Origin: a virus
Taxonomy: Duplodnaviria; Heunggongvirae; Uroviricota; Caudoviricetes
Virus record (IMG/VR): IMGVR_UViG_2667527998_000010
Strand: one strand, 5' to 3'
DNA: 15,861 nt
In this document: piece after piece, positions 9,001-12,000 of the stretch
Numbering within the stretch: the stretch's first letter is position 1
Layout of the letters: every line of letters starts with the position of its first letter
Position numbers: made by a program

Positions 9001-12000
9001 CATAAAAAAAGTCCTGGGGTTAAGTAAGGAACTCCAGGACGCGGCAAACACTCAACCGTTTTTCATAAGGAAATCAGTAATCGCACCGATCGTTTTCCCG
9101 CCTGGTAATGAATATTGGCGAGCACATTAACAGGCGGGAAAGTGGCCCCAGCGTCCTGGCACCACGGGCGAGAATAATCATGATTCAGTTCGGGTAAAAT
9201 ATGCCGATCCGCTCAGTGAACAACGTGGAACAACCACGAACAAATAATTTACAAAAAATAACAAAAAGCCGGATTGCTCCGGCTGCGTGGTGTGGTTCTG
9301 ATATTCCTACTCTGCTAATTTGCTCAGCCCCATGTCTGCGTAAGTGCGATTTACTGCATTTCTCAGGTCTGCGTAGTTCTCCGTTGGCGGCTCCGGTGTG
9401 CCCTTGCTGCTCTGTTTTACCAGCGGGTCGCCCACCAGCTGCCCGTAAGCTGCAATTTGTGCTGTCATATTGCCACCTCAGTGAAGCGATCCGGCATTGT
9501 TCTTTTTCATCTCTTCCATCATTTTTTCAGTGAGCATTACGCACTGAAACCCCATGTTTTTGATGTCTACGGGTTTCATGCCTTTGTCAGTGGATATCAC
9601 AGGCAGAATATCCTGATACACATCGCGGTCAGGGTAACTAAGCACACAAAGCTCCCATGATGCCACGGGTGAGGATCCTTCGTCTGTTTCAACCCACCAG
9701 CCTGGTGTAGCTGCGCTTATTTGCAGAATCGTGATCCGTCCGTTGTGCTTGTAAAATTTTTCACCAAATTTTGGTTCGCTCATGATTCCACCTCTCCGGT
9801 TTTAACGTTGATTGTTGTTACCTGTTCCGCTTCGGCAATCTCCCGCTCTGTCAGCGTGGCAAAATTTGCCGCCGTCGTGGTCATGAATGCGCTTATCAGT
9901 TCGGGATGTGCTTTCGCGTATCCTTCCCCCGCGTGGCGGTCTATCGTTCTGATTGCCACCTTTAAAGCGTGCTCTGTCATGTCTAACGCGCGATATTTCG
10001 GTTCTGTTCTGTCTCTGCGTTTTTTGAATGATTTATTAAATTTCCCTGAAGTGTGCATATTTATTTTTACCCCCTCGTTTAAAAAGTTTTGAGTTGTGCC
10101 TCCCCTTGTCTACCTTATCTACCTTAGTGGCCCTCATGCCAGTAATGGCGCTGCTTTCAGCGGGGTAGAGTGCTTTTATCCACTATCTACCCCGTGTCTA
10201 CCTCCCTGTCTGATTCAGGTAAAATCAGGTAGAGAGGGTAGATAGTGGGTAGACAGTAAAAAAAGGCTATCTACCTAACTTAATGCACTGAATTAAATGT
10301 ATTTTTCTTTACTCAGGTAGACAGGGTAGACAGCAATTACAAAAAATTATAAAAACGCGTCGCACTCGTCTGTTGTTATTGCGTTAGTCTGCGTTACTCC
10401 CTTAACTTTCCGCGTAATATATTCATGTCCGTAAACTTTCGCGGCTGGCTTCATAGCCTTGCCAAAGTCATTTACGTTTAGCGGTTTGCTCCTGCCTGCG
10501 TACGCCATAAACGCCAGATAGACGCGGTAAAGGCTGTTTCTGGTCGTGTACTTCACTGAATCGCCACCGCCGCCCATCATCAGGCCGCGTGCTTCCTCCA
10601 GAAAATTCAGGAACTGGCAAAACTCAATAACCGGATCCGTCTGTTGCTTTATTGCCAGAGCTTCATCACCGTCACGCTGTTCCAGTAGTAAAGCCCGTGC
10701 TTTCTCAGAGTCGGTAAAGTTCGCCAGCAATCGGCGGATAATGACAGGGATTTCAGCCGCAATCTTTTCCGGTAGCTCCCTGTCTTTTTCGGCCTCACTA
10801 ACGATATTGTCGAAACGGAAAATCACGCGACGACGTGCCACACCTCCGGCCCGTTCGGTGAATATCATCGGGTTATTGTTGGTCGCCAGCACCACCGCCC
10901 TGATTACAGCCGTGAAACGCTTTTCGTATTTCGGGTTAATTTCCACGGGGTCACCGCCCGTGATTTTCTTGATGCCCGTTCCTTCGCCTGTATATTTCGG
11001 CTGGTCAGCCAGGACGATAAGACGACTCCCGACAACCTGCGCACGTCCACCAGCATCATCAAGCGATGTCATTTCAGCGCTTACCGTGTTCTGTTTCCCT
11101 GCCAGAAGGCTGGCTATGTGTGTGAATGTACTTTTACCGCTCCCGCCGTCTCCGGTGGCCTCAATAAACATCTGCCAGTCGTACCGGTTCGCCATAATCA
11201 TGTACAGCGCGGCACATATACGCATCATCTTGCGCTGGTCTTTTCCGGCTGCGTGCTCAAGCCATTTATGAAAGTTTAGCGCGTTATCGCGGATGTTCTC
11301 CCCTGGTGCTGGTGGCGTGTACTCAATGCCGTTGTGCGTGGTGATCCAGTTCTCCGGCGTGTGCGGGGAAAATTCCCCCGTTTTCAGGTCAAGCGCACCA
11401 TTGGCGAACGGCAGCAAATCGCCGGACGGCTCGCCCATTGGTTCGGCAATAACTTTTAACGCTTCCACGGCGTTATTGATTACGCGCTTGCTGAAAGTGG
11501 CCCTGTGCTCTGAATAGATCACCACCATTTCGCGGCTAAGTTCCATTGTGCTGACCGGACACCATACCCCGCCGCGCCATACGTGAACGATTTCACTTTC
11601 CTGATGCACACAAACGCCATCAAAGCGCTCGGCAAGCAGCTGCGCGCGCTCACTGTCTGCCATTTGTGCCAGTTGCGTATTTTTCTGCTCCGGCATGGTA
11701 AGCCCTGCGGCAATATTTTCACGCTCAGCATTCAGATAGCGCCGCCAGTTTTCACACTTCTGGACGTGCATTCCTTCGGGGTAAAAATTTGCGTCCTGAA
11801 TATCTGCCGCCGCCAGCTTCTGACCAATCTTTTTGGTCTCCACCAAATCCAGTTCTCCGGCCTGGTACAGCCTTACGCGTTTTTTTCCATCCGGAACAAT
11901 TTTCAGTGCATCAAGTTCGGCAAGCTGATTTGGCCCAAGCCACACAGGCGGCACATTATCGCCGGATGCGGGGCCATCCTGCTCCTGCCATTGTTTCGCG

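Follow-up and report, generated by a model that had tools for sequence, protein, structure and literature searches.

A predicted late control region with phased repeats, a weak promoter and a structured leader RNA before the capsid gene of a capsid-forming satellite

The Xis protein of phage lambda and the Cox protein of phage P2 recognise direct repeats phased at about 10 bp, and Cox is also an activator of PLL, a late promoter of the satellite P4. In phage-inducible chromosomal islands (PICIs), the alpA promoter is activated by AlpA itself, and overexpression of AlpA leads to excision and replication (PMC6092414); capsids of EcCIEDL933 were produced from an alpA-overexpressing strain (10.1101/2025.02.11.637232). 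Capsid-forming PICIs (cf-PICIs) assemble capsids of their own and take only the tails from phages. The switching and timing of their packaging operon are not addressed in the cf-PICI literature searched, and the word 'promoter' is absent from 10.1101/2022.09.08.507074 and 10.1101/2025.02.11.637232. Here, we analysed the IMG/VR virus record IMGVR_UViG_2667527998_000010, a stretch of 15,861 nucleotides (the window) which by its gene content is a cf-PICI satellite beside phoQ, and in particular the 303-bp gap between the stop codon of a PerC-like gene and the ATG (9003) of the major capsid gene, whose features are read on the minus (coding) strand (Table 1).

Repeats and predicted promoter upstream of the capsid gene

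We read the gap as a late control region in which the island protein AlpA would drive a weak promoter and the leader of the transcript would hide the capsid ribosome site; taken as a whole, this is with modest confidence the reading we hold to be probable. Conserved promoter-like elements, repeats and a leader before the capsid gene bear out a preliminary description, made from the window sequence alone, which had called the gap the control region of the head operon. The coordinates which it gave for the features were all correct, with the features on the minus strand; the terminator that it assigned to the early operon was recovered by a terminator scan, the three GAACAA repeats that it placed roughly 10 bp apart (site C) are spaced by exactly 10 bp, and the repeats, on whose conservation in related elements it had made its reading depend, proved conserved there.

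Capsid-anchored searches found diverged cf-PICIs in Citrobacter, Erwinia, Winslowiella, Pantoea and Gilliamella. Four of these loci (Citrobacter, Winslowiella and two Erwinia) have a common upstream architecture: TTTGTAAATTAT comes first, then three direct repeats in phase whose sequence varies, then A+T-rich DNA in which TTTAC and TATCTT stand, and after these hairpin HP1 (GTGGCACTCAGACGTGAGCCGCCAC), the long variable hairpin HP2, and HP3, a helix directly before the ATG; among these diverged elements, the leaders of the Pantoea metagenome-assembled genomes differ, and Gilliamella is without the motif. An exact query with 21 nt of HP1 matched at least 120 IMG/VR contigs, of which most of those listed are about 15 kb and thus satellite-sized, and the capsid gene lies about 120-145 nt downstream of HP1 wherever the listed locus reaches far enough. 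When viral contigs were chosen by their capsid gene and without HP1, 17 of the 24 unique leaders that are not of the window type had the exact HP1, and six more differed at the bulge base only. Among 50,697 phage records, the leader of the majority type gave three matches, one of them in a 16.5-kb 'phage' that is evidently a satellite, and the window-type leader gave none.

The information peaks in 67 non-redundant upstream sequences are the box and first repeats, TTTAC(T) and ATGTATATCTT. In the window, the TTGTAA of the box (9253-9248) is phased at 10-11 bp with the three TTGTTC repeats downstream, whose units are centred at about -56, -66 and -76 relative to the predicted start, and the distance from TGTAAA to HP1 is 88-89 bp in 120 of 124 elements. 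Site C is kept with single-base variants in the window-type relatives, and analogous phased repeats hold its position in all relatives; box plus first repeat, TTTGTAAATTATTTGT(T/A)C, is nearly invariant across very different types of AlpA, integrase and primase. With up to two mismatches, GAACAANNNNGAACAA matched 11 times in the window compared to 2.0 expected, and none of 200 shuffles reached 11.

The preliminary description saw no clear sigma-70 promoter in the gap, which it took to fit an activator-dependent late promoter. As an observation this is true, since a consensus scan of 8800-9600 at a threshold of 9 of 12 matches returned none, because TTTACC and TATTCT, separated by 16 nt, score 8 of 12 and fall under the threshold; the relatives nevertheless point to a conserved, predicted weak promoter. 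In the 67 upstream sequences, TTTAC(T) lies 35-30 nt and TATCTT 13-8 nt before HP1 with a 16-nt spacer, and the TTTACC and TATTCT of the window align with these blocks at fixed positions in the 67 relatives, in a fixed register with the repeats. In the window-type variants GAGTATTCT and GGTTATTCT, TATTCT is intact and the neighbouring bases are changed. The predicted transcription start is near 9165-9163, about 7 nt past the -10 element, which would make HP1 the first element of the RNA. The pair of genes directly upstream in E. coli MS 69-1 is on the opposite strand, so that the capsid transcript there must begin inside the control region and not by read-through. A dedicated, weak and probably activator-dependent capsid promoter is the best reading of these sequences. 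A sigma-54 promoter in HP1 (TGGCAC) was rejected by eye, as GC is absent at -12 and the stem changes are compensatory. An open reading frame (ORF) of 35 codons from 9181 overlaps the -10 element and begins upstream of the predicted start.

Upstream, the terminator closes the PerC-like gene, its stem (9284-9267; seven pairs, five of them G-C, loop of 4) lying 23 nt past the stop codon and being followed by the T-rich tail TTTTGTTATTTTTT; as expected for an intrinsic terminator, stem-loop and tail directly succeed each other, and in L182 a hairpin of other sequence with a T-run is found at the same position. In E. coli STEC1587 (L001 8387-8726), a cassette of about 340-363 bp, which is absent from the window, carries a 225-nt hypothetical gene between two copies of a 23-bp terminator sequence (window 9263-9285) and looks like the gain or loss of a moron through recombination at the terminator. 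The boundary of the late module is the terminator or the box: at least four unrelated upstream contexts occur among the relatives, and the module is exchanged as a unit which begins at the box.

The leader RNA and its possible gating

The transcript predicted from this promoter opens with a structured leader of about 160 nt, formed by HP1, HP2 and a 3′ domain with HP3. The preliminary description had overlooked HP1 at the start of the leader, and had listed an 11-bp 'long palindrome' (9094-9141) and a hairpin GTCCTGG/CCAGGAC in the 5′ untranslated region. Both of these are present, and neither is an independent site: the palindrome, a perfect inverted repeat of 11 nt (9094-9104/9131-9141) that can be extended to 17-nt arms at 94% complementarity, is not a separate DNA site but the covarying leader helix HP2, and the hairpin is HP3 of the same single leader.

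The GACG loop of HP1 is invariant in both leader types, and the inner stem CUCA/UGAG of the majority HP1, GUGGCACUCAGACGUGAGCCGCCAC, is CCAG/CUGG in the window, which is a compensatory change. Using 58 leaders, RNAalifold predicted HP1 and HP2 with compensatory change at 13 of 19 pairs, and in a 44-pair structure consisting of HP1, HP2 with its inner arms, and HP3, 90.5% of the cells were paired. The covariation score was 0.247, compared to 0.124 in shuffles (0 of 500 reached 0.247) and 0.035-0.079 with the partners slid, and the outer stem of HP2 showed changes on both sides at 10 of 12 pairs. In the leader helices G-U exceeds A-C by 120 to 52, which favours the mRNA-sense strand. The fold of the window leader has -68.2 kcal/mol (z = -5.19), and that of the majority-type leader of L045 has -57.5 kcal/mol (z = -5.0).

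The majority-type leader RNA was defined from alignments A3 and A4. A covariance model of the majority leaders that excluded the window (R1) matched the window at 9165-9049 on the minus strand (16.4 bits, E = 4.9e-5; local search on 701 nt, filters off), with the HP1 and HP2 pairs kept. The majority form of HP3, GGUUUCACGU...ACG(A)GAAACC before the ATG, is not in the window, where only the CGUC core aligns. Because the 3′ part fails to align, we take the window leader as a distinct subtype whose 3′ domain is analogous but not alignable. HP3 with seven to eight U residues directly before the ATG is also found in L182, the capsid of which is 69% identical. Searches of Rfam 15 gave no match for the window leader at E <= 1 (whole window), none for the L005 leader at E <= 5, and no leader match at the gathering score in five relatives. 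While the kinds of element in the gap (terminator, activator-type repeat array, weak promoter, occluding leader) are already known, this particular module, which is conserved in more than 100 satellites, and above all its leader RNA are absent from Rfam and from the cf-PICI literature searched.

In the predicted window fold, the ribosome site and start codon are buried by HP3 and by a closing helix, in which UAUGAAAAA (about 9071-9059) pairs with the U-run and AUG; U7 (9010-9004) and the ATG (9003-9001) stand directly after HP3. The leader also holds the elements of an alternative pairing, since HP1 5′ arm and loop are the exact complement of part of the HP3 5′ arm (Table 1); this pairing would release both the ribosome site and the U-run hairpin. 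The majority type has a complementary pair as well, AGACGUGA (loop and 3′ arm) and UCACGUCU (5′ arm of HP3), which differs in sequence from that of the window but lies at equivalent places. The GACG:CGUC core and the CxCGTC target are invariant in 58 of 58 leaders, and the flanking complementary bases differ between the types. When the HP1:HP3 pairing was enforced, the ribosome site became free at a cost of +13.5 kcal/mol in the window and +6.3 kcal/mol in L045, which suggests that the closed state is the default and that some input is needed to open it. The alternative-pairing switch is a part of the scheme which we infer with moderate strength. As the U-run after HP3 is restricted to the window subtype, attenuation cannot be the general mechanism.

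A further-reaching reading, which we consider unlikely, is that HP1, HP2 and HP3 form a new class of cis-regulatory RNA of capsid-forming satellites, closed by default and opened in trans. The opener may be an RNA-binding protein of the helper phage or the island, a small RNA, or cleavage of HP2 by RNase III, and the near-invariant HP1 with its complementary CACGUC target may be the sensor; if true, capsid synthesis by the satellite would be timed to the helper phage cycle after transcription has begun. Elsewhere in two relatives, a hairpin enclosing the ribosome site precedes an extended alpA-like gene (L045, about 2350-2390; L135, about 2165-2205). The two hairpins differ by compensatory changes (GCCTCCAC...GTGGAGGC in L045 and AACTCCAC...GTGGAGTT in L135), so that translation of the alpA-like regulator may be gated as well.

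The structure of the leader also bears on whether the capsid gene is expressed mainly by read-through of terminators, with AlpA acting as a processive antiterminator or HP1 and HP2 acting in cis like the put RNAs of HK022, so that polymerase would pass the terminators at 9284-9267, HP3-U7 and 7836-7815. The transcript starts with HP1 and HP2 directly adjoining each other, similarly to the two put stem-loops of HK022, and the window subtype has both a hairpin plus U7 before the ATG and, after the capsid gene and ahead of that for the protease, a strong terminator. There is also a precedent in Pseudomonas aeruginosa AlpA, a Q-like antiterminator from the same Pfam family that, once loaded at a promoter, lets transcription run past a terminator in the leader ahead of the first gene (PMC7969949, PMC9371919). 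However, the element of P. aeruginosa AlpA lies between -35 and -10 (PMC7969949), while the repeats here lie at about -55 to -90. Antitermination of that kind needs an N-terminal ring segment in the RNA exit channel, whereas the helix-turn-helix of the 62-aa window AlpA begins at residue 5, with four residues before the PF05930 domain. No U-run follows HP2 or HP3 in the majority-type leaders, and elements with divergent upstream genes cannot use read-through from alpA. We therefore regard read-through as the main route to capsid expression as quite improbable.

The phased repeats and their candidate binder

The 15-mer AACAACGTGGAACAA occurs exactly at 1580-1594 as well as in site C (9219-9233), as the preliminary description had stated; its view that the recurrence is only weakly significant was wrong, since two further copies with two mismatches each are found on the other strand at 14550-14584, and the four matches compare with 0.06 expected. 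The 15-mer belongs to a family of four sites, at the attachment (att) arms (E and L), the upstream region of alpA (I) and the capsid promoter (C), each with at least three direct repeats at about 10-bp phase, those on the att arms standing beside the probable arm-type sites of the integrase. Site E lies 17 bp from tandem 12-mers ACTACACC (1542-1549, 1554-1561), and is identical in THO-008 and in E. coli islands at a different attachment site. Site I is conserved in STEC1587. In THO-008, whose AlpA differs from that of the window by three residues, the region of site I has diverged beyond megablast alignment and six (G/A)AACAAC units at 10-bp phase remain; as the motif persists while its flanks diverge, site I has the signature of a protein-binding array. 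Self-matches of site C elsewhere in each relative are noisy and are clear in window-type islands only. Beside site I, just after the int stop codon, lies a perfect 16-bp palindrome, CAGTATGCGCATACTG (14599-14614), which is conserved in STEC1587 and may be an operator.

The arrays were also considered as arm-type sites of the integrase. In Shigella flexneri SFBU1023 (L002), site L is followed by the 21-mer CGGTGTAGTTAATGGTGTAGT, which is repeated at the int-distal end (window 1542-1562), where site E precedes it. In gene direction, the tandem 12-mers GGTGTAGTTAAT x2 thus form an exact 21-bp repeat at both ends of the island (L002 2733-2757), and one copy lies about 22 nt before the int ATG. In the relatives, the 12-mers vary with the integrase clade and the neighbouring TTGTTN arrays do not. 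By analogy with P4, the 12-mers are probably the arm-type sites, and the TGTT arrays were rejected in that role.

That the TTGTTC arrays are iterons of the P4-alpha-like primase-helicase, with site C an origin- or crr-like element that lies beside the capsid genes by chance, is very improbable in our estimate. The window primase is 40% identical to P4 alpha over the helicase and C-terminal regions, and P4 has type-1 iterons GGTGAACAG x3, at 10-11-bp phase and with the same GAACA core, between vis and the late sid operon, with further copies in crr beside attP. Site C, however, resembles the P4 iterons in the GAACA core only. A separate and denser family, TGTCTACC/TATCTACC, with at least 12 copies in both orientations, lies at 10100-10340, right after the primase gene, and is probably the replication origin, as the counterpart of the TGTTCACC iterons that P4 has in ori and crr. 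Moreover, the spacing of site C to the promoter-like elements and to HP1 is fixed (88-89-bp register) in 120 of 124 elements, its class does not follow the primase cluster, and L082 has GGTGAACAG x3 after the primase gene besides site C. With the origin position taken and the promoter register fixed, site C as a primase iteron was rejected.

The best candidate for the binder of the arrays is AlpA, an assignment by analogy that we make tentatively, at slightly short of an even chance. Window AlpA is 47% identical to P4 Vis, which is annotated in the P4 record as 'excisionase and transcriptional regulator'. Alternatively, the phased repeats could be the site of another factor, such as a response regulator of the OmpR/PhoB/CpxR type, IHF, Fis, H-NS or an island protein inherited with the late module, or they could be intrinsically bent DNA; this we rate as less likely than AlpA but as having at least a one-in-several chance, and the reading of promoter and leader would be unchanged by it. 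GTAAA-N5-GTAAA is a CpxR box, GTTTAC resembles OmpR half-sites, and regulators of this type bind direct repeats of 10-11 bp beside the -35 element. The near-invariance of box and first repeat among elements with differing AlpA, integrase and primase, the downstream repeat class that follows neither the AlpA nor the primase cluster, and the swapping of the late module as a unit from the box onwards are all points in favour of such a factor. On the other side, the exact 15-mer, spacer included, is common to site C and the att-arm array, which is unexpected for a generic bend, and the persistence of the site I motif amid diverged flanks argues for a binder that is sequence-specific and is encoded together with alpA and int. 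In published work, cf-PICI capsids are obtained by alpA overexpression, though its effect could be indirect.

Taken together, these results suggest the following scheme. Its sequence features, with their conservation and fixed spacing, the covariation of the helices and the repeat family are what the comparison shows; we infer where transcription starts, that it is activated, that AlpA is the binder, and how the leader is turned on and off. The terminator would insulate the gap from upstream transcription, and a weak sigma-70-type promoter would start the capsid-to-terminase transcript near 9164. Alone, the promoter is probably too poor, and a protein binding head-to-tail on the TTGTAA/TTGTTC array (about -55 to -90) would switch it on. 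This protein would most likely be the island AlpA, a Vis/Xis-type winged-helix factor, which may also bind the arrays beside the integrase arm sites (for excision) and upstream of alpA (for auto-activation). HP3 would hide the ribosome site and start codon, in the window subtype also resembling a hairpin-plus-U7 attenuator, and the complementarity of HP1 to the HP3 5′ arm could open it, so that the leader would add a gate on capsid synthesis after initiation. The repeat family, which joins the excision sites, the upstream region of alpA and the capsid promoter, thus suggests that one small factor coordinates excision with morphogenesis.

Several observations weigh against this scheme. The start site and activation are read from sequence and not from transcripts. 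No clean association was found between repeat class and AlpA clusters or primase clusters: L025 and L082 share site C and have AlpA of different clades, one loosely linked AlpA cluster spans the TTGTTC and TTACCC repeat classes, and elements with a TTACCC-class site C carry TGTTT-class arrays at the att arm. The recognition-helix residues of AlpA (SRSxR[YW]) are similar across clades, which may thus share a specificity; the near-universal box TTTGTAAATTATTTGT would be fitted as well by a conserved host factor. In a PICI of O157 that shares the alpA/int module, arrays E, I and L are present, but the late region is another one and is without site C; site I is inverted, and from it to the nearest consensus-like alpA promoters downstream there are about 130-180 bp. 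As for the leader, the HP1:HP3 pairing is less favourable than the closed fold by 6-13 kcal/mol and needs a driver, the U-run after HP3 is found in the window subtype only, and with default filters the majority-type covariance model did not find the window leader.

The island and its relation to known systems

Table 1. Features of the control region, the repeat family and the island (window coordinates except for site L)
Feature	Position	Strand	Basis or remark
Intrinsic terminator	9284-9251	-	Terminator scan; closes the PerC-like gene
Conserved box TTTTGTAAATTAT	9256-9244	-	Among the highest-information blocks in 67 non-redundant relatives
Site C, 3x TTGTTC (GAACAA on +)	9243-9238, 9233-9228, 9223-9218	-	Exact 10-bp phase
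Predicted weak sigma-70-type promoter	-35 TTTACC 9198-9193; -10 TATTCT 9176-9171	-	16-nt spacer
HP1	9165-9142	-	Fold: GUGGU-G-CCAG-GACG-CUGG-G-GCCAC
CCAGGACGC (HP1 5′ arm and loop)	9159-9151	-	Exact complement of GCGUCCUGG, 9042-9034 (HP3 5′ arm)
HP2	9141-9094	-	11 + 4-5 pairs, 14-nt loop; abuts HP1
Small hairpin GAUCGGUG-CGAU-UACUGAUU	9091-9072	-	Minimum-free-energy prediction; window-type leaders only
3′ leader domain	9071-8995	-	HP3, U7, ATG and closing helix
HP3 GUCCUGG/CCAGGAC	9040-9011	-	Arms 9034-9040/9011-9017; AGGA ribosome site in 3′ arm
Site E, 3 phased TTGTTN	1604-1579	-	Int-distal island end
Site I, 5 TTGTTN in exact 10-bp phase and 1 more	14540-14591	+	In the int-alpA interval; orientation opposite to site C
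Site L, TTGTTC-CAGC-TTGTTT-CACG-TTGTAG-CCCT-TTGTGC, then CGGTGTAGTTAATGGTGTAGT	L002, 170 bp before int		Outside the window
int	15861-14632	-	ORF map
alpA	14257-14069	-	PF05930, E = 5e-18; 62 aa
P4-type primase gene	12095-10347	-	ORF map and Pfam
PerC-like gene	9468-9307	-	Among small genes between primase and capsid genes
Major capsid gene	7846-9003	-	HK97-type

The window opens with phoQ (1-1461, plus strand), after which follows a mobile island with all its genes on the minus strand. The late genes after the PerC-like gene are, in order, those for an HK97-type capsid, protease, portal, connector, HNH protein, TerS and TerL, so that int, alpA and primase are combined with a complete HK97-type capsid and packaging set (ORF map, Pfam, and the RefSeq annotation of the near-identical L001 and L209). 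Matching gene content is described for cf-PICIs (10.1101/2022.09.08.507074, 10.1101/2025.02.11.637232), which are about 10-18 kb long and have no tail and lysis genes (10.1101/2025.02.11.637232). The window is apparently from S. flexneri; the N-terminal region of its capsid is 100% identical to one in strain SFBU1023, and no complete E. coli RefSeq genome is collinear across the full window, the best having 90% coverage and 96% identity. The O157 island at the same phoQ site proved to be a different PICI, of the classical type, that is without the capsid leader.

Codon 276 of the 385 codons of the major capsid gene is an in-frame stop (8176-8178, minus strand), after which the frame is open to its normal end; the capsid of intact relatives has 385 aa, and capsid formation by the window copy is probably defective. 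Between the capsid and protease genes, a strong terminator-like hairpin of nine pairs with a T-run (7815-7836, minus strand) is probably an attenuator that sets the ratio of capsid to downstream expression. Four TGTCAC units at 10-11-bp phase (TTTGTCACGGTGTGTCACTGGTTGTCACTCTCCGTCACG, 1971-2009), in the stretch from the last late gene to the end of the island, are possibly a packaging or recombination site. In the Erwinia psidii cf-PICI (L008), the accessory region directly after the terminase gene has a match to the Rfam C4 antisense RNA (16256-16342; 86.5 bits compared to a gathering score of 45). A single assembly, Pasteurellaceae bacterium Macca (L009-L018), carries many related capsid/terminase modules on separate contigs, several of them degraded, and the enterobacterial leader motif is in none of these modules. 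The motif can serve as a practical marker for cf-PICIs in sequence data.

Compared to known leaders, that of the capsid gene is like the rpoS leader and trp-type attenuators in having the ribosome site in a 3′ hairpin and an upstream segment complementary to the 5′ arm of that hairpin. It is unlike them in that the activating segment is locked in a conserved 5′ hairpin, and neither a leader peptide nor a ligand pocket nor a small RNA as partner was identified for it. With P. aeruginosa AlpA and the lambdoid Q proteins, the locus shares a PF05930 regulator, a promoter-linked DNA site and, in the window subtype, a leader hairpin with a U-run; it differs in the site upstream of -35, in an AlpA with hardly any N-terminal segment to form the ring, and in the leader terminator that is missing in most relatives.

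The arrays are like the micro-filament sites of lambda Xis and P2 Cox, with direct repeats, three to six in number and phased at about 10 bp, beside arm-type sites on an att arm and a protein which is reused at promoters; unlike those, they are found on either arm, in the upstream region of alpA and at the capsid promoter, with AlpA as the putative binder. The closest parallel is the late control of P4 (PLL/Psid, Vis, P2 Cox, delta/Ogr), in which a satellite winged-helix protein of the Vis/Xis type is both excision factor and regulator, a part for which AlpA is the candidate here. P4 also has phased direct repeats upstream of a late promoter, and its record contains three TTAAAG repeats (9176-9205), which we take to be Cox boxes; TTGTT arrays are absent from P4, which is thus uninformative as a cross-check for Vis sites. 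In both, the integrase is of the P4 type and each att arm carries tandem 12-mer arm repeats, those annotated at P4 attP being GGGGGCAnnnnn x2 on each side of the core with one pair just before int, and both have an alpha-type primase with octamer iterons. Unlike the window, P4 uses a TGT-N12-ACA site for delta/Ogr at its late promoters and is without a comparable structured leader, and while its late genes are sid and psu, the late operon of the cf-PICI encodes a complete HK97-type capsid and packaging set.

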